Of a stretch of 64,000 nt of DNA, positions 9,703 to 28,628 are shown piece after piece. Below the pieces are notes generated by a model. It ran no database searches, had not been told where the DNA came from, and worked only from the letters and a program-made list of their open reading frames with translations. The translations under genes were made by a program, and so were the position numbers. The DNA comes from a virus (taxonomy: Duplodnaviria > Heunggongvirae > Uroviricota > Caudoviricetes): IMG/VR virus record IMGVR_UViG_2740892442_000004. The stretch is one strand, 5' to 3'. Position 1 is the first letter of the stretch, and every line of letters begins with the position of its first letter.

Positions 9703-9777
9703 GATGGTGTAGCTCAGCGGTAGAGCAGTTGGCTGTTAACCAACTGGTCGGTGGTTCGAATCCACCCACCATCGCCA
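9703..9777 (+). tRNA. tRNA-Asn (anticodon GTT)
   Basis: Cloverleaf: acceptor gatggtg/caccatc, D-arm tagctcagcggtagagc, anticodon loop ctGTTaa, T-loop ggttcgaatcc, CCA end. Confidence 0.75.
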
Positions 9778-9782
9778 ATTTA

Positions 9783-9869
9783 GGGGAGTTAGTCCGTAGA
9801 GGTAGCGGTGTAGACTGTAAATCTACTGTCATGGCGACTCGGGTGGTTCGACTCCATCACTCCCCACCA
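9783..9869 (+). tRNA. tRNA-Tyr (anticodon GTA), long variable arm
   Basis: Acceptor ggggagt/actcccc, anticodon stem-loop gtagaCTGTAAAtctac, T-loop ggttcgactcc, CCA end. Confidence 0.65.
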
Positions 9870-9873
9870 AATT

Positions 9874-9949
9874 GCCGGTTTAGCTCAGTTGGTAGAGCAG
9901 TCGCTTTGTAAGCGAATGGCCAGCGGTTCAAGTCCGTTAACCGGCACCA
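9874..9949 (+). tRNA. tRNA-Thr (anticodon TGT)
   Basis: Acceptor gccggtt/aaccggc, D-arm tagctcagttggtagagc, anticodon loop ttTGTaa, T-loop ggttcaagtcc, CCA end. Confidence 0.65.
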
Positions 9950-10269
9950 ACACAACAGGTAAGAGCATTGGGCGAATCGGCGATACTGACCCACAAGGCC
10001 GTAAATCGATAGAGTCAGACCAGTGCTCTTACCGTTGTGAGGAAGTGCAGCTCTTTGAAGCAACCAGAAGATAAGCATCTGGCTTCACAACACAACGATA
10101 ATATCATTACGGTTAATCGTCGTTCATGTGCACAATGACTGGTCGAAAGGTAGTGATCTTACCGTTGTGATGAATGCACAGGCTGATGTGCCGCAACTAC
10201 AGTAGTGCGCGCTTTGCGGGGCTTGCTACAACCCTGTGTCGGAGTTCAGCACCGACCATCACAATAGCT

Positions 10270-10356
10270 GGAGAGTAGGGAGCATGGTGCTCAAGCGGTC
10301 TTGAAAACCGTCCCATTGTGCAAACGATGATGGTTCGATTCCATTACTCTCCGCCA
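10270..10356 (+). tRNA. tRNA-Ser (anticodon TGA), long variable arm
   Basis: Acceptor ggagagt/actctcc, anticodon stem-loop gcggtCTTGAAAaccgt as in enterobacterial tRNA-Ser(UGA), T-loop ggttcgattcc, CCA end. Confidence 0.7.
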
Positions 10357-10549: not shown

Positions 10550-11812
10550 TTACTTTGCATAGTCGCCCAATTTTAATATTTCGCGCTTATATTCATTAAC
10601 CATGCTACTGGATTCAGTATAAATTCGATTTAAAAGATTATCGTTATCTTTATTCTCATTTATCTTAATGAGTGATAATTTATATTCATAGTCATCAAAT
10701 GCCACAATCAAATGGTGGCCTGGGATTATATCTTCGTCACTCTTGAAGTATATATCTTCAAGTATGTAATCTAGTTGATTAGATTTTCTTTTCTCGATGT
10801 AATCTTCAGCCATAGCTATTACATCATTCCTGTCATTTAACCTGTTTTTTTCGGAAGGCACATCTTCGTAATGTTGCACGATTGAACAACCAATAAGGCG
10901 TGGGATGTAAACGTCAAAATGAGTAACTCTATCATTCGCGGTTTTAAGTAGTTCCTCAAAGTAGTTTCTTACATGTAAAGGCAACTTCTCAAAGTAATCA
11001 TTAATTATAGGAGAACAAGGAGTTTTATAATTCATAAGAACCGACGGTACGAGCTTTGGGTCTCGAAACATCCAGTCCCTTTTAACGTCCGATGGAACAT
11101 AATAACTTTTAATGATATTATCAAAATAATTTATCATTCGAGATTTGAATATTTTGTTGAATCTAAGGTTTATGAATGCATCCAGATAAGGCATATCTGA
11201 ATAAGCATCATCAAAAAATATTTCATCATTGAAAAAATCATATTTATTTAATAAACAACACAGTTTTCCCGAATTAATATGTTCACAATAATCGATCTTT
11301 AATCCAAAGATAGCAATGATCAACTTCATCTGAGGTGGGATTTTGAAAATTAATTGTGACACATACGCTCTTTTTTCCTTTAGACATTCCCCATCAATAT
11401 AAAATGAACTATCCACATACTCAAAAATATTAATAATATGCTTCACATACTGTATTACCTCATGCTGTTTTACCAATGGGTAATATAGTCTATTTAACTC
11501 ATCGCTGTTTAAATTAATTTTGCGTTTATCGATAATTTGTTTTGCAAGAAGACATAGCTCATCATGTTGATTTAATAAGGAATCAAACCATTGTTTAAAT
11601 GCACTCTTTCGCATTTCGAACAATGATTCTGTTGTTAATTGAAGGGCTGAAAAAGCTGCTTTTGCACTTTTTCTCGCTTCGTAGGCATTCCATGCTGTTG
11701 CTATAAAAGCAAATGCTGTAGCCAATGTTCCAACAATTTGACCATTTAAAACAACCCAATCCCAAAAAATCACGGTGAGCAGTAGTATAATAATGAAAAT
11801 TAAAAAAGGCAT
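10550..11812 (-). CDS. hypothetical membrane protein, strongly AT-rich
   Basis: 420 aa; two predicted N-terminal TM helices; GC visibly far below flanks; opposite strand to neighbours. Confidence 0.55.
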   Translation of the reverse strand: MPFLIFIIILLLTVIFWDWVVLNGQIVGTLATAFAFIATAWNAYEARKSAKAAFSALQLTTESLFEMRKSAFKQWFDSLLNQHDELCLLAKQIIDKRKINLNSDELNRLYYPLVKQHEVIQYVKHIINIFEYVDSSFYIDGECLKEKRAYVSQLIFKIPPQMKLIIAIFGLKIDYCEHINSGKLCCLLNKYDFFNDEIFFDDAYSDMPYLDAFINLRFNKIFKSRMINYFDNIIKSYYVPSDVKRDWMFRDPKLVPSVLMNYKTPCSPIINDYFEKLPLHVRNYFEELLKTANDRVTHFDVYIPRLIGCSIVQHYEDVPSEKNRLNDRNDVIAMAEDYIEKRKSNQLDYILEDIYFKSDEDIIPGHHLIVAFDDYEYKLSLIKINENKDNDNLLNRIYTESSSMVNEYKREILKLGDYAK

Positions 11813-12442: not shown

Positions 12443-13545
12443 ATGAAAAATAGCTTTGACAGAGCACGCGCTGCGGAGAACACCTCAAAAGAGGCGATAG
12501 AGTATCTCGAAAGAGCATCTCAAATGCAGGCCGTTATGATCTCGCAGGTTAGCAATGACATGAGATTCTCGGACGCATTCATGTTATTCACTCGCTTATC
12601 TCTGCTGATAACCAGACGTCGGCCAGAGATCGCTGTTCATTGTATTTTGATACATGTTTTGCCGCACATTGCCGATGTAAAAGTAAGTGACATTAATAGG
12701 TTCATGGTGAACCAACTGGTCAACCCACTAATACTGGATGGCAAAATTGTTATGGGCCGCCGCGTTTTCTCTCTGATGAAGCAGTTCCTTAGCTGGTGCG
12801 CCTTCCAGGGGATGATAGACGTGTCACCGTTAAACGATATGTCACTTAACAAAGTTGCCGGTGGCGCAAAGCCCACACCTCGCGAGCGGAAGCTGACCGA
12901 CGCAGAGGTATGGGTGTTCTGGAATATATGGGACTACTTCAATGTGTGTGCTGGTACAAAATGGGCGGCCAGGCTATGTCTTGTATCCGCAAGACGACCT
13001 GACGAAGTACTGCGGGCTAAAAAAAGTGAGTTCAATCTTAAGCGTGGGGTTTGGAATCAAGGCAAGAGGAACAAATCTGCCCGTGAGCATTCTCTGCCTT
13101 TAAGCTCATTAATGCGCACTTGTATTGAAGAGTTGTTCGAATATGGTAAAGACAGCCAGTGGCTCGTGCCTTCGAATAAAAAAATCGGGAAAGACCTTCC
13201 TATGTCTAAAGTGGCAATAGCCAGGCATTACGTCGTATTCTGGAACGACCAGAACTGATGGAGCTTGAGCCATTTACACCCCGAGATTTGCGCCGTACTG
13301 CGCGTAGTTACTTCCCAGCATTAGGCATAAGCCAGGAGGTATCACGTAAAATCATGAACCACAGTCTTGAGGGGATAGATCGGGTCTACGACCGGCACGA
13401 TTATATGGACGAGATGCGAGACGCCTTAGAAAGTTTCTCGACGTACATCGCATCAATCGTAGAGCAACCGGATTTAGACGAAATTGACCACAAATTTAAG
13501 GGAGATCGTCTATCAACAGAGCTTATTCGTGTAAATTTTTCATAG
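12443..13545 (+). CDS. tyrosine recombinase/integrase, apparently frameshifted near 13258 (possible pseudogene or indel error)
   Basis: Upstream ORF has LVSARRPDE box I-like Arg; downstream ORF has TPRDLRRTARSYF and MNHSLEGIDRVYDRHDY catalytic motifs; the two ORFs abut in different frames. Confidence 0.5.
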
Positions 13546-13926
13546 AGACTTTATGGCCTCAACAACCTTTTGTGATGCGCCTTTCTCTTTACCGAATCGC
13601 TCGTTATATGCAGCAAGAACCTGTTTTTCGTCCTCGTTAAGAGGAGCAGTGCCTTCTTTGTATAAAAATGCTGCGAGTTCGGGTTGGCGTTCTTCCAGCA
13701 CCATCATCATAAGACGACTTGGCTCAATACCCAGTGCCAGCGCCAGCGGACGAACCTTATCGATAGGCAAAGGAATTTTGCCGCTTTTAATTAAAGAAAG
13801 GTTGTTGGCGTTTTTATACCCAATTGTTTTGGCTATCTGGGCCTGGCTCATAGGTGAGGATTCAATCAACCCTGCGATAAAAGCAGCGTAGCGACTTTCT
13901 ATAAATTCAATCTTGTTATCAGACAT
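13540..13926 (-). CDS. HTH (XRE-family) transcriptional regulator
   Basis: Helix-turn-helix segment SQAQIAKTIGYKNANNLSLIKSGK, 128 aa. Confidence 0.55.
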   Translation of the reverse strand: MSDNKIEFIESRYAAFIAGLIESSPMSQAQIAKTIGYKNANNLSLIKSGKIPLPIDKVRPLALALGIEPSRLMMMVLEERQPELAAFLYKEGTAPLNEDEKQVLAAYNERFGKEKGASQKVVEAIKSL

Positions 13927-14177
13927 GGTTACAACCTTTGCGCGTTCAATTCTCTCTGGTAAGTGCTTACCGATATTACATCAAAGGTTAGGGTTGTAAA
14001 GCTATTATCATTTTTTTCGATAGGCACTTAAAAGACCGGTTAAAGGCCATTGCACGGAGAAAAATTAGCCCAAAATAGGTAAGAAAATCAACTTGCATAT
14101 GATATGAATGTATTCAGTATTGATACAAATTTTAGTAGTATTCCTTACCATAGTATAAGTTAGAATGGATTGATTGA

Positions 14178-14390
14178 ATGAACACCACTATTTCCAGCCT
14201 AATCGCTCTTGAGATCGGACACGTACAGAAATTAGCTGATGAGTGTGTAGCTGACATCCTCACCGATCTACCGAATGAGCAGATTCAGGTTGGTGTGAAT
14301 GACACAACTGGATTTATATTCGAACTTAACAACAAACGCTTCACGCTTCTCAATACCGGCTCCGGGTCTTTAGCCGTCAGAATCTGTTAA
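14178..14390 (+). CDS. hypothetical small protein, divergent from HTH regulator
   Basis: 70 aa ORF. Confidence 0.4.
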   Translation: MNTTISSLIALEIGHVQKLADECVADILTDLPNEQIQVGVNDTTGFIFELNNKRFTLLNTGSGSLAVRIC

Positions 14391-14488
14391 CCCCTCTTCT
14401 CCCTGCGCGAATGGCTTAGTTCCCTGTTCGCGCAGTGCTACATTAAACACACTAGTAAATAATTTGTTTTCATAACAAAGGATTAGCC

Positions 14489-16597
14489 ATGTCTAAAAAA
14501 CGTTCCATCAAAGAGGTTCAGGACTTCCGTGACAGTGTAAAACGAGTAGTCGCTCTCCTTTCAGGTAAAAACATCCCTGTTGCAGAACGAGGGGACGACG
14601 CTTATGTACGCTATAACGATGATGGAGAGCCAATTCTCGTAAACATCCCATCAATCCCGGATAACGCAACACCGGCATTGATGAATGCTGTGCGCGGATT
14701 TCTCGATCATGAGGTTGCTCACATTTTGTTTACCGATATTCGTGTGTCCAACAAAATGAGAGAAAAAGGACGCGTTCCTTCCTGGTCGCTATGGAATGCC
14801 TTAGAAGACGTGTTCATCGAGCGAAAAATGGGTCAGGTCTTTAACGGAACAAGACGTAATCTGATGGCAACTCAGCGCCTTATAATCGAAAAAGTCTTTA
14901 AACCAAAGGCTTCAGAGGCTATTGCTTATTGTGGCAAAGATCAGCGCGCGCTTTTTCTAAACTTCTTTCTCTGTCCGGTTGTAAGAGCCTGGGATGGCCA
15001 AGCACCGTTCGTAGATTTCATGGATGAATATTGGCCTGTCATTGAGAAACCAATTTCATTATTAAAAGAACATGGTATCGATGTGGCCGTGCGTAACATG
15101 TCTTGCACCGAGGATTGTGTAAAGGTGGCTGCGACCATAGCTAAGATCCTCAAAGACACTGAAAGTGAAAGCAAAGGTAAGGAGTCAGCTCCGGGAAAAA
15201 CTTCCGATCCTTCAGACGCTGACCAGACGGATGCCTCTGGAGAAAACAATGAAGACAACGAAGATCATGAGACACCCTCAGCGTTAGATAATCACAAATC
15301 TATCAAATCAGAATCACACAGTAAGCACAAACATGATAATAACGACGGTGATGATTCAGATAATTCTGAATCATCAGAAACAATATTCGATGATACAGAA
15401 AATGATAAAGAGGTATCAGATTCTGATGCTTCTGATAACGCGGTGTCAGAATCATTTACCGCTGACCACGAAAAAAGAAAAACGACAGAAGACGGCTCTT
15501 CAGATATCCCAACTCCGTCAAAAATGAGTCTGGAAGAGGCTTTAGAGGAGCTGGATAGCATAGAAGATGAAGTCGGAGGCATGACAGAAGATGCTCTATC
15601 CGAAACGATTAAAAGCGAGTTAACAGAAAGCTCGAAAAGCGAATACAGGCCATACAATCGCTCATACGACTTCATCGGCTCGATTGATCAGGCAGAAGCC
15701 CATATCAAACGGCTTATTAAAACATTCTCCGATATTGATTTAGGTGGATATCCAATCAGCCGTTATCGCATCGTTCCTGAAGGCAACCAACTCTTCGACA
15801 AATATATTGAAAAGCACCTTTCGTCAGGTGTTTCGTCGACGCTGGCAAAAGACCTGGAGCGAGCAATAGCAAGCAGAAACAGAGTTCAGTTTATACCTGG
15901 CCAGCGTCGGGGGCGCATTCATGGTTCAAGTATCTACAGATTAACAATGAATGATGATCGCGTGTTTCGTAAAAAAGAAGAATCTAAAGCCGTTAACGCC
16001 TGTGTTCAACAAGTGATTGATTTATCGGGTTCAATGAGTGGCGAAACGATAAAACTAGCTCTTGCAAGTGCATATACCATCGCCGATGCACTTGATCGAA
16101 TAAATGTTCCCAACATTATCACCGGCTTCACTACATTTGGTAGTCATATGGCGGCAGGAGAACTTAAGGCTGTCAAGTATGAGTTCTCTCGCTTTGAATC
16201 TTTAATGCTACCTATCATCAAAAATTGGAATGAAAAGGTAAATTCTCGCGAAGTTCGCTCACGTATGGGGTGCGTAGGCTACACATTCCCACTTCTTAAT
16301 AACGTGGATGGTGAAAGCATAGCCAGCCTTGCATCGTTATTTTCCGGTCGCATGGAGGACAGGAAGATCATGCTTGTTCTGAGTGATGGCGCGCCGTGGG
16401 CTGTTGGGAGAGGTTTTGACGCTCATTTGCGTTCAGTTGCGAAGCAAATTGAAACGCAGACTGATATTGATTTGATGGCAATTGGCATCATGACTGACGC
16501 ACCGGAGAGATTTTACTCAAATCATGCCCTGGTAACGAGCGTTGATAGTCTTGGTTCATCTGTAGTTACTGAACTATCTCGTATCATTTTAAAGTGA
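14489..16597 (+). CDS. vWA-domain protein (CobT-like) with acidic low-complexity insert
   Basis: MIDAS-type DLSGSMSG motif near C-terminus; D/E/S-rich segment around 15180-15560. Confidence 0.6.
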   Translation: MSKKRSIKEVQDFRDSVKRVVALLSGKNIPVAERGDDAYVRYNDDGEPILVNIPSIPDNATPALMNAVRGFLDHEVAHILFTDIRVSNKMREKGRVPSWSLWNALEDVFIERKMGQVFNGTRRNLMATQRLIIEKVFKPKASEAIAYCGKDQRALFLNFFLCPVVRAWDGQAPFVDFMDEYWPVIEKPISLLKEHGIDVAVRNMSCTEDCVKVAATIAKILKDTESESKGKESAPGKTSDPSDADQTDASGENNEDNEDHETPSALDNHKSIKSESHSKHKHDNNDGDDSDNSESSETIFDDTENDKEVSDSDASDNAVSESFTADHEKRKTTEDGSSDIPTPSKMSLEEALEELDSIEDEVGGMTEDALSETIKSELTESSKSEYRPYNRSYDFIGSIDQAEAHIKRLIKTFSDIDLGGYPISRYRIVPEGNQLFDKYIEKHLSSGVSSTLAKDLERAIASRNRVQFIPGQRRGRIHGSSIYRLTMNDDRVFRKKEESKAVNACVQQVIDLSGSMSGETIKLALASAYTIADALDRINVPNIITGFTTFGSHMAAGELKAVKYEFSRFESLMLPIIKNWNEKVNSREVRSRMGCVGYTFPLLNNVDGESIASLASLFSGRMEDRKIMLVLSDGAPWAVGRGFDAHLRSVAKQIETQTDIDLMAIGIMTDAPERFYSNHALVTSVDSLGSSVVTELSRIILK

Positions 16598-16692
16598 ACA
16601 AAACAGCCTTAACGATAAGTAACCACTTACGATAGATAATGATATATTTATATAAGAAGTTGAACGCTCATTAGAAAACAAAGGAAAAACGC

Positions 16693-17928
16693 ATGACTAC
16701 TACTGCACTGCAAAATGAAAAAAATCCTTCTGATTACCTTGTTTGCAAGTGGTGCGGAAAATCATTTCACTATTTTAAGTCCCATGTAGCCAATGGTAAT
16801 TGCGAGGGCATTCCTGAGTCAGTAAAAGATGCCGATCCTGACACCGTACTGAAAATGTACACAACACAGTTTCCAGATGAGCCAACGCTATCGAAAAAGG
16901 CACTTGATGCAATTCAAGCTAAACGTGCCGAGCAAAAAAGCGAAATGGCCAAATCATCTGGCGTGACCAGTAGCCCAGGCTACACAGGCACAGTTGAGTA
17001 CAAGACAGATCTGGTCGCAGCTCACGAACTGCTAAATGTAACGGTGAAAGAACTCGGAACAAAACGTGGGACGCCGCTCATGGTTAGCGTCAACGTCAAT
17101 ACGCCGTTTCCAGAGTTCGTTCCTGAAGTGAAGAAGGGATACGTATATGGCGACTTCGAACTGATCAAAGACATTTTCATGATGCTTGAACTTGGCATAC
17201 CTGGCTATTTGTGGGGTCATGCAGGAACAGGCAAATCTTCATTGCCTACACAACTATGTGCTTTGCTCAATCGTCCGTTAATCCGTGCCCAACATACAGC
17301 ATCAATGGAAGAGGCTCATGTTACGGGACAAATTCTGGCGCGTGATGGCTCTACGTATTTCGAGCCTGGCTTGCTTGCGCTCGCAATGAAGCATGGCTGG
17401 GTTTACCTCGCGGATGAATACGACTTTGCGTTTCCACAGATTCTTGGCGTGTATCAGCCAGTGCTGGAAGGTGAAGCGTTGGTCATCAAAGAGGCGACTC
17501 CAGAATGGCGTCGCATTACTCCGCATGAACGGTTTGCTTTCATTGGCACTGGCAACACGAACGGATCTGGTGATGAAACCGGCTTGTACCAGGGTACAAA
17601 CATCCAGAACGCCGCGAACTTTTCGCGTTTTGGCATCGTTTCGAATGTGAAATACATGAGCAAAGAGGCAGAGATCAACATGTTGATAAATGCCGGTATC
17701 GTGGATGAATACGCAGAAAAGATGGTTAAGTTTGCCGGTATCGTTCGCGATGGATACGAAGAACACCTTATCAGTCAGCCAATTGGCCCTCGTGAACTTT
17801 TGTTGTCGGCCAAGATTGGAATGATGCGAGGCGACTTTGTGACAGGTATTGAGCGTTCTTTCATTAACAAACTCCCTTCAGCTTCTGCACAAGCGGCTCG
17901 TGAAGTTGTTCAAAAAATATTTGGTTAA
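16693..17928 (+). CDS. AAA+ ATPase (CobS/MoxR-like)
   Basis: Walker A GHAGTGKSS, Walker B VYLADEYD; 411 aa. Confidence 0.65.
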   Translation: MTTTALQNEKNPSDYLVCKWCGKSFHYFKSHVANGNCEGIPESVKDADPDTVLKMYTTQFPDEPTLSKKALDAIQAKRAEQKSEMAKSSGVTSSPGYTGTVEYKTDLVAAHELLNVTVKELGTKRGTPLMVSVNVNTPFPEFVPEVKKGYVYGDFELIKDIFMMLELGIPGYLWGHAGTGKSSLPTQLCALLNRPLIRAQHTASMEEAHVTGQILARDGSTYFEPGLLALAMKHGWVYLADEYDFAFPQILGVYQPVLEGEALVIKEATPEWRRITPHERFAFIGTGNTNGSGDETGLYQGTNIQNAANFSRFGIVSNVKYMSKEAEINMLINAGIVDEYAEKMVKFAGIVRDGYEEHLISQPIGPRELLLSAKIGMMRGDFVTGIERSFINKLPSASAQAAREVVQKIFG

Positions 17929-18108
17929 TCGTGCGTAAAGGATGTTTCGGCTCTCTTATCGCTGCTTCTGAAACTGGTAAGGCTTGTCTGGTGTGTCCAG
18001 ACAAGCCCGATTGTCACCAATCAGCAAAAGAAGTTGCGATTTCGATGCATGGGAAGTTCGTAGGCTTCCCCAATGACAAAATCAAAAAAACCAGAAAGGT
18101 AAAAACAC

Positions 18109-21100
18109 ATGAAGGCACTGATGGTTCGAACTGACTTCTCACTTGGGGAGTCGGCTCTAAAAGCAGAAAACGCGGTGAAGATTGCCAGAGAAGCTGGCTA
18201 CACCGCTGTAATTTCAGCAGATAGCATGAATATTGCGAGCGTTATTCCACTACAACGTGCCGCTGGTGACGACATGGCGGTTATTTGTGGTGTGAAACTA
18301 AACATTGTTGATGATCCCACATACGAGCACCGGGCTAAACTTGCTAAAGAATCTATGAGATGTATGGAATCATTAGAGCGGGGACGTAACTACTCGTTTA
18401 CCGCTCTAATTAAAAATGAGCAAGGATATCGCGACATCTGCGAACTAATGACGGCGGCCAACACACGAGAACAGTTCTACTTTGTACCGCGTCTCTCGCT
18501 CGAACAGTTGGTTTCTACATATGCCAAAGGCAACATCATCCTGCTTACTTCCGACATCGGTAGCGTGTTCCAACGCAACGATTTTGCAAAAATCATAAGC
18601 ACACTGATTACAGCGGGTGGAAAAGACAACTTCTATAGTGTGGTTTATCCGCACCCTACTCCATTCTACGACCAGATTAACGTCCGGGCGATGAAAGTCG
18701 CCAGCGCATTGAAAATAGAGCCAGTGGCGTTCTATCCCGCTTATTACGAATCGATCGACGATGCAGACATTAAAGACATTGCGCACATGGTTACGAACAA
18801 CATCAAAATCGACCAGCCGCATCGTCTGCGTATCCCCCACCAGCGAGATAACGCCGTCAATGGTCGCCGCCATCTCCTTGAGGCGCTTAAAGCCTTCTCC
18901 GTTCGCATGGATGTGCCGGTAACAGCTGCAATGGCCTCAACAACGCAGGATACCATTATCGATGCCTGCACATGGCGCTGGCATGAATTGCCGCCAGCAC
19001 TGCCAAAGATGGCAGACGACGAGCCTGCAACGCTTATGAAACTGGCTGTTGCAGGGCTGCGTAAACGTCTTACCACAAAAGAGTTTGGCTACACACCACC
19101 TGCTTCTGAGAACAGGGTTTATGTTGAGCGGCTAAAGTACGAAATGGACACGCTGACTCGCCTGGGATTTTGTGGTTACTTCCTGATGGTACGCGATCTG
19201 ATGAATCATAGTCGTGAAACTGGCATTCCCGTTGGGCCTGGTCGTGGTTCCTCTGCCGGTTCTCTGGTGGCGTGGTGCATAGGCATAACCAACGTCGACC
19301 CAATCCGTCACGGTCTTCTGTTTGAGCGTTTCATCAACCCTGAGCGTCTCGACTTGCCGGATGCGGACTTGGACTTCAGCCAGGCACGTCGCCATGAGGT
19401 GATCGAGTATCTGAATGAACGCTACGGCGAAGATTACGTTGCGGGTATTCCGAACTTCACCTACCTGGGCGCAGCCTCTGCACTACGTGATACCGCTCGT
19501 ATTTATGGTGTGGAGTCCGCAGATATGGCGGTATCAAAAGAACTGAAGAACGTCGAGGATGATAGCCTTCCATTGGAAGAGCTGCGCGAACAACTGGCAA
19601 GTCTCGACAAATACGCAACAAAATATCCTGATGCATTCAATGCAGCCTGCAAGTTACAAAGCCTTATGCGTGGCTTTGGTAGACATGCGGCAGGGATGAT
19701 CGTAGCAGGTGTTCCTCTGACAGAACGTACACCGGTTGAGCGCCGTGGTGACGCGCGTTGTATCGCATTTGACAAGCGTTACTGCGAGGCTATGGGCCTA
19801 ATTAAGCTGGACGTGCTTGGCCTGGCAACTCTCGATTTGCTCGATAGTGCAAAACTCTACATAAAAGAGAACACAGGTGAAGATATCAATCTTGATGCCA
19901 TTTCTCTTGAAGATCGCAAGGTGCTGGATGGTTTTGCTGCTGGGTACAGTCAAGGTGTTTTCCAGCTTGAATCAGGCCCAATGCGCAAGCTGCTTAAAGA
20001 TTTAGGTGGTGGAATTGAGCCAATGAGCTTTAAAACGGTCGTCGCTACAACTGCGCTCTTCCGGCCGGGGCCAATTCAATCAGGCATGTTGGATGACTAT
20101 GTTTCTGTCGCCAAAGGCTTTATGACGCCGGAATCATTACACCCCGTTCTTGATGAACTTACCGCGGAAACAAATGGCGTGATTCTCTATCAGGAACAGA
20201 CGATGAACGCGACTCGATTGCTTGCCGGCTTCACAATGGCTGAAGCTGACGCTGTGCGTTCCGCAATCGGTAAGAAGAACATGGAAAAAATGAAGAGCAT
20301 GGGCGAGAAGTTCATCGTTCAGGCTCAAGCTGGCTGGATAGACGTTGAGCTGGAAGATGGCACTACACAGCGCATTCACCGTGCGGAACATTTTAAATGC
20401 GAAGACGGAACTCTGAAAACTGTCGAAGAGGCACTTGAGCACGGCGCAAAACTACCTATAAACGCAGTACGCGTTACAGCGTCACATCCAGGGCTATCAG
20501 AGATGAAAGCGAAGGAGATCTGGACCGCATTTGAGAAAAACGGAGCCTATCAGTTCAATAAATCACACTCCGTTGCTTATTCTTTAATCAGTTATCAGTC
20601 TATGTGGCTAAAGACGCACTACCCTGCTGAGTTCTTCGCAGCTGCGCTCACCATTCTGGGCGAGGATAAGCATCAGGGGCTGGTGAAGGATGCGCTGACC
20701 TATGGCATTCGCGTATTGCCACCAGACGTTAATGTGTCATCTAACCGAATTGAGATCCGCACACTCGAAGACGGCAGTCAGGCACTGTATGCGCCATTCT
20801 CTGCTGTGAAAGGCTGTTCTGAAAATGGTTGTCAGGCAATTATGCGTGCGCGTGAGAAAGTTGGTGGCAAATTCGAGTCAGTGGCACAATTCGATGAAGC
20901 GGTCGAGAAGCGTGCATGTAACAGTCGTGTACGCGAGTCGCTTCATAAAGTAGGGGCTTTTGCGTCAATTGAGCCAGGCAGTCTGCCAGCAACTGATCCT
21001 GAACGACTGCGCGACCAGGCTGAGCTGATGGGCAATCTCATCATTGACGCTGTTAAAGCATCACGTCCGTTCGAAATGAATCCTAAGCGTTCTGCCGAAA

Positions 21101-21627
21101 TCAACGTACTCATGACACGTATGGCGGCTGAAATGGGCTTGGGTGAGGAGTTGATACGCCCGACTATTGGTATTAAACCCAAAATCATGATCATTCTGGA
21201 CAATGCGAACGGCAATGACGCTCGTACCGGCTACTTCATGGAGAACGGATACGACGACTTTAAGGCAAAACTACTGACAGTTGGAGATCTGCGCATGGGC
21301 GATCTTTATGTCACGGGTGTTTGTAAGAAGGTTAAGGACAAAGAGAAAGACTATACCAAAGACGAGATAGGCCAGTTCACAGACTTTATGCGGGAAGAAA
21401 TTAATCTTGTACGACCAACCTACATTTTGACGTGTGGTAGTCGTTCAACCGCACTATTTAACAATAAGAGTAAACCATCAGATCTGATTGGTCGTAAGGA
21501 GTACTTCCCAGAGCTTGATGCAACCGTCTTCTACGGATTTAACCCGAATATCCTGTACTTCCGACCGGAAGAAGGAGAGCGACTGGAGGCCATTCTGGCT
21601 GATATCGCGGAGACAATAAATAAGTAA
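18109..21627 (+). CDS. dnaE: DNA polymerase III alpha subunit (DnaE-type)
   Basis: PHP N-terminus; catalytic GPGRGSSAGSLVAWCIGIT motif; 1172 aa; conserved AAAGGTAAAAACACATG leader. Confidence 0.85.
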   Translation: MKALMVRTDFSLGESALKAENAVKIAREAGYTAVISADSMNIASVIPLQRAAGDDMAVICGVKLNIVDDPTYEHRAKLAKESMRCMESLERGRNYSFTALIKNEQGYRDICELMTAANTREQFYFVPRLSLEQLVSTYAKGNIILLTSDIGSVFQRNDFAKIISTLITAGGKDNFYSVVYPHPTPFYDQINVRAMKVASALKIEPVAFYPAYYESIDDADIKDIAHMVTNNIKIDQPHRLRIPHQRDNAVNGRRHLLEALKAFSVRMDVPVTAAMASTTQDTIIDACTWRWHELPPALPKMADDEPATLMKLAVAGLRKRLTTKEFGYTPPASENRVYVERLKYEMDTLTRLGFCGYFLMVRDLMNHSRETGIPVGPGRGSSAGSLVAWCIGITNVDPIRHGLLFERFINPERLDLPDADLDFSQARRHEVIEYLNERYGEDYVAGIPNFTYLGAASALRDTARIYGVESADMAVSKELKNVEDDSLPLEELREQLASLDKYATKYPDAFNAACKLQSLMRGFGRHAAGMIVAGVPLTERTPVERRGDARCIAFDKRYCEAMGLIKLDVLGLATLDLLDSAKLYIKENTGEDINLDAISLEDRKVLDGFAAGYSQGVFQLESGPMRKLLKDLGGGIEPMSFKTVVATTALFRPGPIQSGMLDDYVSVAKGFMTPESLHPVLDELTAETNGVILYQEQTMNATRLLAGFTMAEADAVRSAIGKKNMEKMKSMGEKFIVQAQAGWIDVELEDGTTQRIHRAEHFKCEDGTLKTVEEALEHGAKLPINAVRVTASHPGLSEMKAKEIWTAFEKNGAYQFNKSHSVAYSLISYQSMWLKTHYPAEFFAAALTILGEDKHQGLVKDALTYGIRVLPPDVNVSSNRIEIRTLEDGSQALYAPFSAVKGCSENGCQAIMRAREKVGGKFESVAQFDEAVEKRACNSRVRESLHKVGAFASIEPGSLPATDPERLRDQAELMGNLIIDAVKASRPFEMNPKRSAEINVLMTRMAAEMGLGEELIRPTIGIKPKIMIILDNANGNDARTGYFMENGYDDFKAKLLTVGDLRMGDLYVTGVCKKVKDKEKDYTKDEIGQFTDFMREEINLVRPTYILTCGSRSTALFNNKSKPSDLIGRKEYFPELDATVFYGFNPNILYFRPEEGERLEAILADIAETINK

Positions 21628-21636
21628 TAAAGAAAA

Positions 21637-21658
21637 CCCGCCTGTTGGCGGGTTTATA
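21637..21658 (+). terminator. Rho-independent terminator after dnaE
   Basis: cccgcctgttggcggg followed by tttat. Confidence 0.6.
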
Positions 21659-21930
21659 AAGAATTATGGCGCTTGTTGAGGAAGTCACTCCTCTTACGCA
21701 CTTTGTTTTGCCATGCCGGCAGTTAGCTTCTGCCTTTGACTATTCATGCGGCAACCCCGCATTTCGCCACAATGGGCAATTCACTTTTATGGAATAAACT
21801 GGCCGTTGTGTCGATTTAATTAGCATGGCCTTACCATGCTAATTTATTCAACTTGTACAATCCTACAAATCTATCCACTCAGGCTTACACCGTCTTCGTT
21901 ATTGTAGAAATGAGGATCATCAGCGTTGAA

Positions 21931-22146
21931 TCAGCTTAGAGCAACGACATTTGCTGCTGCTGGGCCTTTAGCCCCATTCTCGATAGAGAATTCGACCTGC
22001 TGGCCTTCTTCCAAAGTGCGGAAATTATTACTCTGAATTGCCGAAAAATGTACAAAAACATCTTTACTGCCATCAGCAGGAGAAATAAAGCCAAAGCCTT
22101 TATCAGAGTTAAACCATTTTACTAAACCAGTCATTTTATTAGACAT
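21931..22146 (-). CDS. cold-shock protein (CspA family)
   Basis: [21 protein letters not shown]...[11 protein letters not shown] motifs; close to enterobacterial CspA. Confidence 0.8.
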
Positions 22147-22475
22147 AGATATTACCTTCTTAATTTTGTGAGCCACATAGTGCGGCGAGAATTTGATCTG
22201 TATAGATTGGGACTTACTTAGGCACTTAAGGAGGAGACTCACGAAGAAGGGAAATCAGAAGATAACACTGAACTGAGACTGCTTTACTAAAACTGCTTAC
22301 ATAAGGTCTGTCTTGCAAACCAACGATGCTATTAACGCATACCCCTTCTTTTCATGCAACCTTTATTTTTCAAAGATAACTAATTTTTGTCACCATTGGT
22401 TTAGTAAACGTTAACGAACCAGACGATGCCAGACACCTTTACAGAGAACAGATGCCCGCCAATTGGCGGGCATCA

Positions 22476-23075
22476 TTATGCGCATTTCGCAATATCTTTG
22501 CGGCGTTTAATCAGTTTCTCCGCAATTTGCTCTATTTCGTTGAAATCTTTCGAGACGCTGTTTCGAAGCGCCAGATTCCATTTACTCAAAGTTCGGGCAT
22601 TTTGGACAATTTGATCGCCCTCTTTAAGTCGTCCGTTATTCATGAGCCATTCAGCCACATCAGCCCAATCCCAGAGAGGAGACTGGCCTTTTATGCGTTG
22701 TACAGGGCAAGGGAAGTCGCCGCTTCCGCGCTTACCGTCTTTGAGCAACGCCACTGCCTGGCGAGACAGGTCTGTCAGTTCCGCGATATCGCTTAAGCCC
22801 ACAAGAGCCGAGTCGACGGATTCAACAATTGCACCGATACCGGCTGATTCAATATTGTCGACCGCAGATGCGATAGCTGCATCAAGTGATTGTGCTTCGC
22901 GGTCAAATTCTACATAGACGGAGTTTCCATATGCGCAAATTAGCGCATCGTCACAGCCGTTTTGGTACAGCGCGTCTTCCAGTCCTTCCGTCTCATACGA
23001 TACGCCTGAGAGCGTCAGAGTGAAGTTATAAAGCGCCATAGTTTTCCTTTGAAGATAGTTGGACAGTTTCTGCAA
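22476..23075 (-). CDS. hypothetical protein (possible DNA-binding C-terminus)
   Basis: 199 aa ORF co-directional and 25 nt downstream of the small ORF 23100-23324. Confidence 0.45.
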   Translation of the reverse strand: MQKLSNYLQRKTMALYNFTLTLSGVSYETEGLEDALYQNGCDDALICAYGNSVYVEFDREAQSLDAAIASAVDNIESAGIGAIVESVDSALVGLSDIAELTDLSRQAVALLKDGKRGSGDFPCPVQRIKGQSPLWDWADVAEWLMNNGRLKEGDQIVQNARTLSKWNLALRNSVSKDFNEIEQIAEKLIKRRKDIAKCA

Positions 23076-25216: not shown

Positions 25217-26160
25217 GTGAATTATCTCTTCGTAGATGGCAATAGCTGGGTTATTACCATCAACAATCTGACAAATTGCACAACGGCGAAATGGAAGTAC
25301 AGGCTGCTTTCGGCTTTGTTAAGAACGTCCGTCGTTATGCCTCCATCCTCCATGCCCGACCTATGATTCTTTGGGATGGATTTAGTGACAAGCGTCGCGA
25401 CTTTTACCCGGACTACAAAGCAAATCGCGACGACGATCCTGATATGAAAAAGATGAAGGAAGGCTTTGCTATCCAGAAGCCATACATCCTCAAAATGATG
25501 ACCGCGCTTGGAGTTACCCAACTCATTGCAAAAGATGCAGAAGCGGATGATCTGGCCGGGCTGCTGGTATCCCGCATGGCACCGCAGCCAACCGTTGAAC
25601 ACATCTATCTGTTAACAGGCGATAGCGACTGGCTTCAGTTAGTTCGTGAAAACGTAAGCTGGGTAAGCCTGCGTGAAGACGCCAAAAACAAGCAGGTTAA
25701 TTTTGAGCAATTTGCGGAGCTGACAGGATTCGCCACGCCTCGCGCATTTTTGGAAGCAAAAGCATTACAAGGAGATAACTCGGACAACATTAGCGGTGTT
25801 GGTGGCATTGGTGCTGGCGGTGCGAAAGAGCTGCTGCATGAATGGGGAAGTGTCGCAACGATGGTACGCGGCATCAACGACGGCTCAATCGTGGTTAATA
25901 AAGGGCGTCATAAGACCGCCTTCAACAAACTAGCGAAGAATGCCTTCAACGAGAAAACAGGCTGTCGAATGCTCGAAGCGTTCAAGAGAAACATCACGCT
26001 AATGAACCTGATTGAGACGAAGTTTCCGCCTACCGAAATCGAAACAATCAAAGGCAATCGTGACGTGAAAGCATTCGAGCAACTGTGCTACGAGCTGAAT
26101 TTCCGTTCGTTCCTTGAAGACCTTGAAGTGTTTGTTCTTCCATTCGAAAGGTATTGCTAA
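25217..26160 (+). CDS. 5'-3' exonuclease / flap endonuclease, apparent frameshift near 25245-25280
   Basis: N-terminal VNYLFVDGNSW in one frame; remainder (AEADDL, GDNSDNISGVGGIG H3TH) in another. Confidence 0.6.
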
Positions 26161-26426
26161 TGCTTAAATCGATTATCAATGGCGCTACAACCACCCCTGC
26201 CCAACTGGCAAAAGAGATTGTCTTTTATCACGGTGAGTACGCTGTCATCGCACTGCCGTCAATTCTAGGCGCTGCCGGAATGAAAGCGACAGATCGCGAG
26301 TTTGGATTAGTCAGCGAGCAGGTCGTAAAAATCCTCGCTCGTGTATCCAGACTCCTTAACCACGATGCGATTGTATTCGATGAATCCGCCGCTTTAAAAC
26401 GAATCAACGAAACAAAAGGAGCCTGA
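26160..26426 (+). CDS. hypothetical protein
   Basis: ORF overlapping FEN stop. Confidence 0.4.
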   Translation: MLKSIINGATTTPAQLAKEIVFYHGEYAVIALPSILGAAGMKATDREFGLVSEQVVKILARVSRLLNHDAIVFDESAALKRINETKGA

Positions 26427-26428
26427 TC

Positions 26429-27502
26429 ATGGCAAAAGGAAAATCCGCACTGGCACTTGCTCTGAAAAAGAAAATCGGTAGCAACGACGAAATTCAGAAA
26501 GTAACTCATTGGATTGATACAGGCTTTCCACCGTTAAACAAAGCTATTTCTGGTCGTTACGATGGCGGCTTCCCATGTGGTCGTATCGTCGAAGTATTCG
26601 GTCCTCCAAGTGCAGGGAAAACGTTCCTTGCAACAGCAGCGATGATCTCCGCTCAAAAACAAGATGGTCTGGCGGTATTCCTCGATCATGAAAACAGTTT
26701 TGACGTTGGCCTGGCTGTCGCCAATGGCCTGAACGCAGATGAGGATGACGGTCAGTGGGTATACAAGCAGCCAGATACCTTCGAAGACTCTGTAGAGTTG
26801 ATCGGCACAATACTTAAATTGGTTCGTGATGAAGAGCTTATCCCCGAATCAGCACCAATCTGTATCGTGGCTGACTCTCTTGCGTCTATGGTTCCGAACT
26901 CCAAAGCCGAGAAGTTCGAAAAGATGGCTGAAGGCACTGCCAAAGACAAAGATCAGCTAAACATGAACGACAATACGGCACTGGCTCGTGCGACGAGTGC
27001 GAACTTCCCTACTCTGGCTTTGTGGGCACGCAAATACAACGCCTGCATCATCTTCTTGAATCAGGTTCGCACAAAAATCGGTGTAATGTTTGGCGACCCT
27101 ACTACGTCGCCAGGTGGAGATTCACCGAAGTTCTACGCTTCTGTACGTATCCGTCTTGGTGCATCGGTGATGAAGGATGGTAAAGAGAAGATCGGCCAGG
27201 ACGTAGGCGCAGAATGCATCAAAAACAAAGTTGCACCACCGTATGGCAAATGCACCTGGAAATTCTACTTCGATCCTACTCGTGGCCTCGACGTTATCGA
27301 ATCGCTCGTCGAGTACATGCTGGAAGAAGGATACCTGCCAAAGAACGCCAGCGGGCGAGTTGAAATTGGTGACAAGAAATACACCAAATCGCAGATCGTC
27401 GAGATGTATCGGGAGAAGCCACTGGCTGAAATCATTGCGGCTTTGCAGGCAATCGACGACCGAAGAGCAAAAGACAACCCCACCGAGTCAGTAGAAGAGT
27501 AA
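26429..27502 (+). CDS. RecA/UvsX-like recombinase
   Basis: Walker A GPPSAGKT; RecA-fold core; 357 aa. Confidence 0.7.
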   Translation: MAKGKSALALALKKKIGSNDEIQKVTHWIDTGFPPLNKAISGRYDGGFPCGRIVEVFGPPSAGKTFLATAAMISAQKQDGLAVFLDHENSFDVGLAVANGLNADEDDGQWVYKQPDTFEDSVELIGTILKLVRDEELIPESAPICIVADSLASMVPNSKAEKFEKMAEGTAKDKDQLNMNDNTALARATSANFPTLALWARKYNACIIFLNQVRTKIGVMFGDPTTSPGGDSPKFYASVRIRLGASVMKDGKEKIGQDVGAECIKNKVAPPYGKCTWKFYFDPTRGLDVIESLVEYMLEEGYLPKNASGRVEIGDKKYTKSQIVEMYREKPLAEIIAALQAIDDRRAKDNPTESVEE

Positions 27503-27506
27503 ACAC

Positions 27507-27531
27507 AAGGCGTCCTGTGGACGCCTTTTTT
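27507..27531 (+). terminator. Rho-independent terminator
   Basis: aaggcgtcctgtggacgcctt followed by tttttt. Confidence 0.65.
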
Positions 27532-27594
27532 ATCTCTTGAAAATATATAAGCACTTACTTATTATTTTCGCATAACAACCACATAGGAAAACAC

Positions 27595-27795
27595 ATGATC
27601 AAAATCTATCTATTGGCAGTAGCCACAGGCCTTTCAGTGGCTCTCATCTACGGTTTACTGGTTCCGTCGCTGATTTCTACCAAGAGTGATTTAGCCGTCA
27701 TGTTTGGAGTTATCGTTGGTTTTGGTGCTCCTGTAATCGGTCTTATTGCTGGTCGTAAGTTTATCAACTCATTAATCAAAGCAAAGGGGAAATAA
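27595..27795 (+). CDS. small membrane protein (possible NfeD-like partner of SPFH protein)
   Basis: 66 aa, two hydrophobic helices; immediately upstream of SPFH gene. Confidence 0.4.
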   Translation: MIKIYLLAVATGLSVALIYGLLVPSLISTKSDLAVMFGVIVGFGAPVIGLIAGRKFINSLIKAKGK

Positions 27796-27798
27796 GTA

Positions 27799-28628
27799 AT
27801 GAAGAAAGGTTTACTTGCAGTTGCTCTGGCGGCTATTTGCACAATGGGTCTTACTGGCTGTGATCGCGTGGAGCTGGATACGTTGGCATCAAAGTAAACA
27901 AATTAGGTGAAGACAAAGGGATTGGTGAAGTGGTTGGCGTTGGTCGCCAATGGACAGGTCTTAACACCGAACTTTACGTATTCCCGACCTTCAAACAAAT
28001 GAAGACCTACGACGAGCCGTTCACATTCCAGATGAGTGACGGTACTGCTATTGGTCACAAAATTGGCGTTGCGTATCTGGTTAATCGTGACAAGGTAACG
28101 ACGGTGTTCCAGACCTATCGCAAAGGCGTAGACGATATCACCGAATCAGATCTGCGTCAGAAAATTGCCGACTCTCTAAACCGTTTGGCCAGCCGTATGA
28201 CCACTGACTCATTTATCGACGGTGGTAAGGCACAATTGCTGGACAACGCACTGAAAGATATTCAGAAAGAGATGTCTCCGGTTGGTATTGAGGTACTGAG
28301 CCTGTCATGGGTTGGAAAGCCTGATTACCCAAAAACTGTCATTGAATCTATTAACGCCAAAGTAACGGCTAACCAGCGTACTCTGCAACGTCAGCAGGAA
28401 GTTGAACAACGTAAAGCTGAGGCGAATATGCTACGTGAACAGGCTAATGGTGAAGCTGATGCTATCCGTGCTCGTGCGCAAGCAGAAGCAGACGCCATTC
28501 GTCTGCGCGGTGAAGCTCTGCGTCAAAACCCGAACGTTATGGAACTGGAAGCCATCAATAAATGGAATGGCCAGTTACCGCAGTACATGACTCAAGGGGC
28601 TAACACTCCTTTCATTACAGTGAAATAA
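27799..28628 (+). CDS. SPFH/band-7 domain lipoprotein, apparent frameshift near 27862-27870
   Basis: Lipobox signal MKKGLLAVALAAICTMGLTGC stops after 32 aa; SPFH body continues in another frame (…QRQQEVEQRKAEANMLREQANGEADAIRARAQAEADAIRLRGEAL). Confidence 0.5.

Follow-up and report, generated by a model that had tools for sequence, protein, structure and literature searches.

A CobS/CobT-like motor-adaptor gene pair with an intact zincin motif in an SSU5-type phage-plasmid of Escherichia coli

Background

The closest described relatives of the gene pair analysed here are CobS and CobT of cobaltochelatase, for which structures are available (9UKA-9UKL, 21VT, 21VU; Zhou et al. 2026, bioRxiv 10.64898/2026.07.21.739949). 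CobT is built in three parts, an M48C-like N-domain, a disordered acidic linker of about 90 amino acids (aa) and a shaft followed by a vWA domain with a MIDAS (metal ion-dependent adhesion site), and its shaft enters the pore of the ring formed by CobS, an AAA+ ATPase of the MoxR class with Walker A and B motifs, an arginine finger and sensor 2. The same kind of ATPase, and a protein of the same three-part plan with a linker that is longer, are encoded at positions 14,489 to 17,928 of a 64,000-nucleotide stretch of viral DNA (IMG/VR record IMGVR_UViG_2740892442_000004; the whole stretch is called the window below), which belongs to an SSU5-type phage-plasmid of E. coli. The phage pair differs from cobaltochelatase in that its N-domain keeps an HExxH motif where CobT has S-M-A-L-R, in that its CobS-like protein carries an extra N-terminal extension of about 100 aa with a C2H2-like motif, and in that it is set among replication genes and not among cob genes. 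Moreover, the element lacks CobN, and its host is not known to have it.

A second described system comes from T4-like (group 2.2) jumbo phages, in which a MoxR ATPase adjoins a vWA protein with an N-terminal metallopeptidase domain (Iyer et al. 2021, PMC7824862), so that the architecture as such is already known. The cyanophage version of this arrangement is represented by Syn19, where a protein annotated as 'peptidase' and accompanied by cobS aligns with the window protein through an HEVGH motif and a DxSGS MIDAS, although identity is only about 20% and the Pfam CobT models miss the cyanophage protein, which matched no Pfam family at all at E <= 1. A role in virion assembly was proposed for the jumbo-phage pair, whereas the pair in the window lies in what appears to be an early replication operon.

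More distantly, NorQ/NorD, CbbQ/CbbO and RavA/ViaA work on the same principle, in which an AAA+ hexamer is paired with a vWA cofactor and the client is gripped by the cofactor's MIDAS; by structure the window vWA domain matches NorD best, and by sequence the ATPase weakly matches NorQ and CbbQ. They belong nonetheless to other subfamilies with neither a zincin-like N-domain nor such an acidic linker, and the phage context lacks their clients (nitric oxide reductase, Rubisco and respiratory complexes). Among class I chelatase motors, Mg-chelatase BchI/BchD (ChlI/ChlD) has an adaptor in which an acidic disordered linker leads to an integrin-I/vWA MIDAS domain, but the N-terminus of BchD is AAA+-like and not zincin-like, and there is no detectable sequence match to the window pair. 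The N-domain itself resembles, at the level of the fold, the M48/minigluzincin peptidases (Ste24, BepA and HtpX-like proteins; BlaR1, ArdC, Spartan), with HExxH on the helix that follows a three-stranded sheet.

The cobS/cobT-like pair is among the most widespread of the so-called auxiliary metabolic genes of tailed viruses, being core in T4-like cyanophages and present in ICP2, in haloarchaeal viruses and in SSU5-type phage-plasmids, and virome surveys routinely score it as 'cobalamin biosynthesis'. In enterobacterial phage-plasmids this label is almost certainly wrong.

Results and Discussion

Domain architecture of the two proteins

An earlier note on this DNA, made from its letters, had described a 702-aa vWA protein followed by a 411-aa MoxR/CobS-like AAA+ ATPase. 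Both open reading frames (ORFs) were found exactly where that note placed them, 95 nucleotides (nt) apart and each with a plausible ribosome-binding site (AGGA and AAGGA, 8-9 nt upstream), and profile searches and structure prediction agreed with its description of the pair. The features are as follows.

14489..16597, + strand: CobT-like adaptor protein, 702 aa (Pfam CobT and CobT_C; PHROG 1576, 2.4e-300)
14489..15178, + strand: N-domain, residues 1-230, zincin / M48-like fold (helix, three-stranded sheet, nine helices)
14708..14722, + strand: HEVAH, the HExxH zinc-binding/catalytic motif, residues 74-78 (conservation)
14804..14821, + strand: E106-D107...E111 on the helix after next, candidate third zinc ligand (conservation)
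15152..15643, + strand: acidic Asp/Glu/Ser-rich disordered linker, about residues 222-385 (composition; AlphaFold2)
15872..15994, + strand: stretch homologous to the CobT 'shaft', residues ~462-502 (counterpart of CobT residues ~373-416)
15962..16591, + strand: vWA domain with MIDAS, D511, S513, S515, N605 and D633 (Pfam, conservation, Foldseek)
16693..17928, + strand: CobS-like MoxR-class AAA+ ATPase, 411 aa (Pfam AAA_5; PHROG 249, 2e-106)
16693..17112, + strand: N-terminal extension of the CobS-like protein, about 140 aa (CobS residue 38 aligns to residue 141)

In the 702-aa protein Pfam recognized CobT at residues 9-294 (E = 4.7e-26) and CobT_C at residues 492-701 (E = 1.7e-82), and the solved CobT 9uka_G was matched by profile with E = 3.7e-69. 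CobT and CobS were the only strong matches among solved structures, with midasin, CbbQ, NorQ and NorD far behind. The AlphaFold2 model of the protein has a mean predicted local distance difference test score (pLDDT) of 80.7, and the topology that it gives to the N-domain (a helix, a three-stranded sheet and helices) agrees with that published for CobT_N. The tie between the N-domain and CobT_N was recovered by profile, and also with a CobT N-terminal sequence as bait; phmmer with the N-domain alone against PDB sequences gave chance matches only (to human leukocyte antigen and superoxide dismutase).

To describe conservation we used the best 150 relatives from an exhaustive HMMER search (5,151 cluster representatives), 146 of which were full length and were aligned together with the query, giving 147 sequences mutually at most 50% identical, referred to below as the diverse relatives. 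The MIDAS-type DxSxS motif that had been noticed near the C-terminus is D511-L-S513-G-S515 and lies in the vWA domain CobT_C. D511, S513, S515 and D633 are invariant in all 147 sequences and N605 is nearly so; together they align with D422, S424, S426, N518 and D546 of CobT. The best Foldseek matches of the domain are the vWA domain of NorD in NorQD (1.5e-8) and the MIDAS domain of MDN1 (1.1e-7), both of them MIDAS domains coupled to AAA+ motors. In the segment aligned with the CobT shaft, one alignment (A4) showed G471, G475, D489, R491 and F493 to be invariant and R476 and L482 nearly so (>= 90%), and another (A3) agreed at a lower level of invariance; judged by this alignment, the segment may well serve as a shaft here too.

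The 411-aa protein carries Pfam AAA_5 at residues 173-293 (E = 2.1e-15), and its best solved relative is CobS 9ujv_A (E = 1.8e-25, residues 141-411), followed by midasin, CbbQ and NorQ. The Walker A motif GxxGxGK at residues 175-181 (G175, G178, G180 and K181), the Walker B residues D241-E242, and R312 and R367 are invariant across eight phage lineages, and with Walker A, Walker B, arginine finger and sensor 2 all in place the protein is an AAA_5 ATPase of the MoxR class, adjoined by a vWA gene with a complete MIDAS. The pair has in full the CobT architecture (N-domain, disordered linker, vWA domain with MIDAS) and intact CobS ATPase motifs. The N-terminus of the CobS-like protein exceeds that of bona fide CobS by about 100 aa and contains C18-x2-C21-x4-H26-x4-H31 (16744-16785, + strand), which is common to Pseudomonas phage nickie and degenerate in Rhizobium phage RHEph10; this may be a small zinc-binding knuckle.

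A zincin motif kept in the phage proteins and lost in cobaltochelatase

The N-domain reads G70-F-L-D-H74-E75-V-A-H78, followed further on by E106-D107 and E111. Among the diverse relatives H74 and E75 are each found in 144 of 147 and H78 in 143 (about 98%), while E106 is present in 146 and E111 in all 147, the last two being kept also in the inactive-looking bona fide CobT (AVEQARVEA). H74-E75-x-x-H78 is predicted to lie within helix 62-81, after the three-stranded sheet, with E106 and E111 on helix 99-117 of the model. The domain has the features of a zincin fold, and its structural neighbours include the antirestriction protease ArdC. At the position of HExxH the solved bona fide CobT reads R-G-L-G-D-S-M-A-L-R, both histidines and the catalytic glutamate having been lost. 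The motif recurs in phages of other kinds, as HECYH in ICP2, HEIGH in Gordonia phage Woes, HEAGH in Roseobacter phage CRP-810 and HEVGH in Syn19. Pfam at E <= 1 assigned no peptidase family to the N-domain or to six phage homologues, with the exception of M3 at E = 0.25 in Woes.

The contrast between the phage HExxH and its loss in genuine CobT appears to be unstated in the literature that we searched. The earlier note had the MIDAS protein and the AAA+ family right and missed this conserved motif of the N-domain. Set against the new CobSTN structures, the intact viral motif provides a concrete hypothesis that can be tested, for which tractable systems exist in PhiR41_1 on E. coli K-12, SSU5 on Salmonella LT2 and Cyrano in LF82.

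The acidic linker

Between the alignment anchors at residues 220 and 390 the linker spans 170 aa, of which 30% are Asp or Glu, 25% Ser or Thr and 13% hydrophobic, and AlphaFold2 gives pLDDT values below 50 at residues 238-335. The low-complexity Asp/Glu/Ser-rich insert of roughly 130 aa reported previously is therefore real, and that length is a fair middle estimate; the opinion that the insert is unusual did not hold. A comparable acidic stretch, disordered over some 90-100 aa, is found by alignment at about residues 210-310 of the solved bona fide CobT (9uka_G, 637 aa). In the 147 diverse relatives the segment ranges from 64 to 347 aa with a median of 196 aa, and its median Asp plus Glu fraction is 0.35, only 38 of them having a shorter linker than the window protein. 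Close enterobacterial relatives (120 sequences) have a median of 226 aa, and the 170 aa of the window protein are near the minimum. The acidic insert is a hallmark of the family. Identity is 29-49% in the linker against 76-83% in the flanking domains, and this fast change of sequence with the acidic composition kept indicates that the linker behaves as a disordered tether constrained only in its composition. As a source of the variation in length we searched for tandem DNA repeats and found none that was significant, only a 9-mer in 2.6 copies.

A proposed mode of action

We interpret the pair as an early-lytic, ATP-driven and MIDAS-targeted protein remodeller, possibly a protease, that represents a phage lineage of the CobS/CobT motor-adaptor module, and we favour this interpretation with moderate confidence. 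It is built directly on homology, domain architecture, motif conservation, the absence of CobN from the element and synteny, from which we infer the mode of assembly, the protease activity, when the genes are expressed and what kind of client is handled. By analogy with the solved cobaltochelatase, and with NorQD and midasin, the CobS-like protein would form a hexameric ring of the MoxR class, the CobT-like N-domain would dock on the small AAA+ subdomain and the shaft would enter the pore of the ring, with the acidic linker tethering the two CobT-like domains. A client could then be gripped with the vWA/MIDAS site on one side and the zincin-like N-domain's sheet on the other, and ATP hydrolysis would rotate or pull the adaptor and so remodel the client. 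The pair would be part of an early-lytic operon under the control of the repressor, with the phage DnaE in the same operon.

Given the intact zincin motif of the phage clade, it is plausible that the client is cleaved, and we put the chance that the CobT-like protein is an active metalloprotease at slightly less than even. More tentatively, the client may belong to DNA replication or to host takeover. A bolder proposal, which we consider unlikely as it stands, is that the phage clade represents the catalytically intact form of CobT, a zinc metalloprotease machine driven by ATP and targeted through its MIDAS (a CobS-like ring with a zincin-vWA adaptor) that seizes and cleaves a conserved host or replication-associated protein during early lytic growth, and that the CobT of chelatases descends from it in degenerate form, no longer proteolytic, with CobN occupying what was once the substrate cleft.

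Gene neighbourhood

The genes that surround the pair and enter into the argument below are as follows.

13540..13926, - strand: helix-turn-helix (HTH) repressor, homologue of CYRAN_45 of Escherichia phage Cyrano (weak Pfam HTH_19; Cyrano annotation 'putative repressor')
14178..14390, + strand: 70-aa ORF, first gene of the putative operon (PHROG 2627, 8.8e-41)
17931..18134, + strand: 67-aa Cys-rich ORF (CLVCPDKPDCH) between the CobS-like gene and DnaE (PHROG 6337, 3.2e-45)
18109..21627, + strand: DnaE-type DNA polymerase III alpha, 1172 aa (profile matches, synteny)

Upstream of the pair the order is helicase, primase, ligase, tRNAs, glutaredoxin, integrase, the divergent HTH repressor and the 70-aa ORF, and downstream it is the 67-aa ORF, DnaE, HicAB, UvsY, a gp32-like single-stranded DNA-binding protein, exonuclease and RecA. 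The repressor, whose position is kept in many genome loci, probably controls the putative operon. Conservation of the 70-aa ORF is limited to enterobacterial relatives, and the 67-aa ORF, which overlaps the start of DnaE by 26 nt, is kept only in enterobacterial, Xenorhabdus and Morganella relatives. The C-terminus of DnaE (21265-21612) carries a domain like family-4 uracil-DNA glycosylases at residues 1053-1168 (TIGR00758, E = 5.3e-7), an ending that is also recorded in the annotation of RHEph10, and DnaE is followed by a hairpin resembling a terminator at 21634-21655.

We scanned bacterial genomes with GF[LIV]DHE[VI][AG]H, picked as the most conserved peptide of the family, a pattern which is unable to return bona fide CobT and is biased to the phage clade. 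The scan yielded 32 loci with an HExxH-type protein, and in about 20 of these CobT-CobS is followed by DnaE within 0.2-1.8 kb, usually with helicase, primase and ligase before and gp32 and exonuclease after. The hosts are alpha-, beta- and gamma-proteobacteria, the cyanobacterium Phormidium and Desulfosarcina (where the order is CobS-CobT-DnaE), and in the most distant loci CobT, CobS and DnaE are about 30-40% identical to their window counterparts; a contig of a Chloroflexi metagenome-assembled genome ends inside the CobT-like gene and only its upstream primase-ligase-repressor part is visible. Many of the contigs are 96-118 kb long, and seven contigs in this range, from Roseospira, Massilia, Phyllobacterium, Ancylobacter, Paracoccus, Faunimonas and Magnetospirillum, carry the primase-ligase-CobT-CobS-DnaE module, which suggests SSU5/nickie-like phages or phage-plasmids well beyond the Enterobacteriaceae. 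RHEph10 and nickie have the order CobT-CobS-DnaE as well. In ICP2 the pair lies upstream of primase, helicase and PolA, and in Syn19 between gp46 and gp45/44/62. The earlier note, correct about the pair itself, had not seen this conserved linkage to the replication module and to DnaE.

When seven lineages were compared, no third gene was found to be conserved beside the pair, only the CobT-like and CobS-like genes being common to all, which points to a self-contained two-gene cassette with no conserved phage-encoded partner. As no client gene consistently accompanies the pair, the client would be either a host protein or specific to the lineage, and a host protein, or a lineage-specific factor of replication or takeover, best fits such a cassette-like distribution. 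With regard to timing, data for the LF82 lysogen list the repressor CYRAN_45 as expressed, while CYRAN_47 and CYRAN_48, the Cyrano counterparts of the pair, are absent from the Cyrano genes above background (PMC9928086), which fits a function in the lytic cycle rather than in lysogenic conversion.

Evidence against the remodeller interpretation and alternatives to it

Several observations weigh against the interpretation of the pair as an early-lytic remodeller. The HExxH motif is degenerate in nickie (SEISK) and lost in three of the 147 diverse relatives, and these losses, with that in genuine CobT, mean that catalysis is dispensable in some lineages. The annotations around the pair in Gordonia phage Woes and Roseobacter phage CRP-810 include no replication genes, and the 1,214 phage records that have a DnaE-type polymerase far outnumber the 81 that have a CobT-like gene, so the link to replication may reflect nothing else than the conserved gene order of one phage lineage. 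A scan for sigma-70 promoters and terminators over 13400-22500 gave fewer sites than shuffled sequence and is therefore uninformative on how the operon is built, the hairpin after DnaE being the only useful site. Finally, the searchable literature yielded no experiment on any phage CobST-like pair, in agreement with what the earlier note said of the role of such pairs, and nothing functional was found in it linking cobST to DnaE, to pHCM2 or to phage experiments.

One alternative is that the pair is a chaperone or protease of virion assembly, in which the MoxR-vWA machinery assembles, and the peptidase processes, tail or head proteins. This was proposed for the MoxR and metallopeptidase-vWA proteins of group 2.2 jumbo phages, with the p618/p892 pair of Acidianus two-tailed virus, for which such a role is shown, cited as a precedent (Iyer et al. 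2021, PMC7824862), and the window protein has both the zincin motif and the fold. In the SSU5 lineage, however, the pair lies about 14 kb from the end of the structural and lysis block and within the replication module, where it directly follows the lysogeny repressor and precedes DnaE; the pairs of ICP2 and Syn19 are also among replication genes, and no structural gene consistently adjoins the pair. We regard an assembly role as improbable.

Host takeover or counter-defence offers an explanation for the linker, which would act as a DNA-like decoy capturing DNA-binding proteins of the host (nucleoid, restriction or defence proteins) for the motor and the zincin domain to strip or destroy. The occurrence of a two-gene cassette in unrelated phage lineages and many host phyla suggests a broadly conserved host target, and the conservation of acidic composition without conservation of sequence, the likeness of the N-domain to ArdC and the early-gene-like position all fit. 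The proposal is nevertheless purely inferential: genuine CobT has the same acidic linker with no DNA-related role, so that the linker may be a mere flexible tether, and the PADLOC defence models gave no significant match (a lone DrmE hit with E = 7e-4 and 16 bits was deemed noise). This too we find improbable.

The proximity of the polymerase raises a further alternative, namely that the pair matures DnaE, by loading metal into its PHP domain or by assembling the replisome, in analogy with the insertion of iron into nitric oxide reductase by NorQD. The order CobT-CobS-(small ORF)-DnaE is kept across phyla at protein identities of only about 30-40%, MoxR-vWA pairs typically mature metalloenzymes, and a PHP domain is present in DnaE. 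Yet more than 1,100 phage records with a DnaE-type polymerase have no detectable CobT-like gene, ICP2 and the cyanophages carry the pair with PolA- and PolB-type polymerases, and no third gene is shared beside the pair across lineages. On the 1,214 to 81 count given above an obligatory DnaE accessory is rejected as a general rule, and maturation of DnaE is in our judgement quite improbable.

The published proposal for viral CobST is that genuine cobaltochelatase motor subunits hijack the CobN of the host, which would raise the supply of cobalamin during infection (Liu et al. 2021, PMC8651126; earlier Seed et al. 2011, on ICP2). It is consistent with the clear homology to CobS and CobT over all domains. 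Some host groups of cobST phages, moreover, own CobN, among them rhizobia, actinobacteria, cyanobacteria and haloarchaea. The window proteins, however, failed the NCBIfam equivalog models by a factor of 7-10 (TIGR01651 CobT, 74.1 bits against a cutoff of 759; TIGR01650 CobS, 84.8 against 558.6). No CobN was found in the window, where DnaE (1172 aa) is the only ORF above 720 aa, nor was anything CobN-like among the 126 annotated genes of Cyrano, so the possibility left by the earlier note, that these are ordinary chelatase subunits with the third subunit encoded nearby, was not borne out. E. coli is not known to have CobN or a de novo corrin pathway, nor is Vibrio cholerae known to have CobN. 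The nucleotide enzymes of the element are a class Ia ribonucleotide reductase (NrdAB) and the thymidylate synthase ThyX, which require no B12. Salmonella makes its B12 by no route other than the anaerobic one (PMC3768742). The low equivalog scores, the lack of CobN and the B12-free enzymes together mean that the hijacking of CobN cannot apply to this element. Against it also stand the absence of the two genes from those expressed in the lysogen and the retention, in about 98% of relatives, of an HExxH motif which real CobT has lost and which has no role in a chelatase. The pair almost certainly makes no vitamin B12 in this element; that it is a CobST-homologous motor-adaptor pair not acting as a cobaltochelatase here we consider likely, and the hijacking proposal, for the window, very improbable.

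An anti-repressor protease of the ImmA/IrrE type that would cleave the neighbouring HTH repressor and trigger induction is barely credible, since the recurrent adjacency, in many loci, of a zincin domain and a divergent repressor is offset by pairs in ICP2, Syn19 and nickie with no repressor homologue within about 7 kb of annotated flank, by the lack of expression in the lysogen, where such a sensor must be present, and by an architecture far larger than that of ImmA-type proteases.

The element, its distribution and its annotation

The earlier note saw the vWA and AAA+ pair and did not recognize the element as an SSU5-type phage-plasmid, of about 108 kb and very common in E. coli. The 9.3-kb stretch around the pair is 97.8% identical to Escherichia phage Cyrano (pLF82, the phage-plasmid carried by E. 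coli LF82); its identity to PhiR41_1 is 95% and to Salmonella phage SSU5 80%, and the window is collinear with Cyrano except for a few indels; this near-identity and the gene order in common with SSU5, Cyrano and pHCM2-like elements place the window among the SSU5-type elements. Of 5,426 complete E. coli genomes, 219 (about 4%) carry the 3.4-kb pair at >= 95% identity, at 228 places, every one of them on a plasmid, and the 90%-identity cluster of the window protein has 3,307 member sequences. With thousands of copies in the databases and its general kind published, the gene pair is already known and the window adds nothing new at the sequence level; the remaining interest is in the testable idea of a viral clade acting as an AAA+-driven metalloprotease, with 'cobalamin biosynthesis' as a mis-annotation.

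The annotations themselves vary. On the E. coli plasmids the Prokaryotic Genome Annotation Pipeline labels the two genes 'cobaltochelatase CobT-related protein' and 'AAA family ATPase', and relatives in phage records carry porphyrin or cobalamin biosynthesis labels, in agreement with the earlier statement that such pairs are annotated as cobalt-chelatase-like in phages. In Cyrano, CYRAN_47 and CYRAN_48 (14091-17530) are named 'dimethylbenzimidazole phosphoribosyltransferase' and 'cobalamin synthetase'. Both names are errors, which we take to have arisen from the collision of the names CobT and CobS between the Salmonella/E. coli and the Pseudomonas nomenclature, where they denote unrelated proteins.

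Some further differences between the window and Cyrano were observed. Four phage-borne tRNAs (Asn, Tyr, Thr and Ser) lie at 9703-10356, of which Cyrano has three, tRNA-Tyr being absent. The segment 9780-12290 has no Cyrano counterpart and a low G+C content (0.36), and contains a 420-aa ORF (10550-11812, - strand) whose N-terminus is hydrophobic and which Pfam does not match; the segment is probably an accessory insertion beside the tRNA cluster. The integrase (12443-13545, + strand) is split into two ORFs of 271 and 95 aa by a frameshift at about 13219-13258, while the Cyrano gene is intact (367 aa, 98-99% identity), and the ribonucleotide reductase alpha gene (37626-39936, + strand) is spread over three frames with breaks near 37856 and 38698, its pieces being 99.8-100% identical to the intact 771-aa NrdA of Cyrano. 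The broken integrase and the broken NrdA suggest either indel errors of sequencing or assembly or a decaying element. RecA of the window (26429-27502, + strand) has 357 aa, and RecA of Cyrano (26019-28358) has 779 aa owing to an insertion of about 410 aa at residues 77-486, possibly an intein or a homing element.

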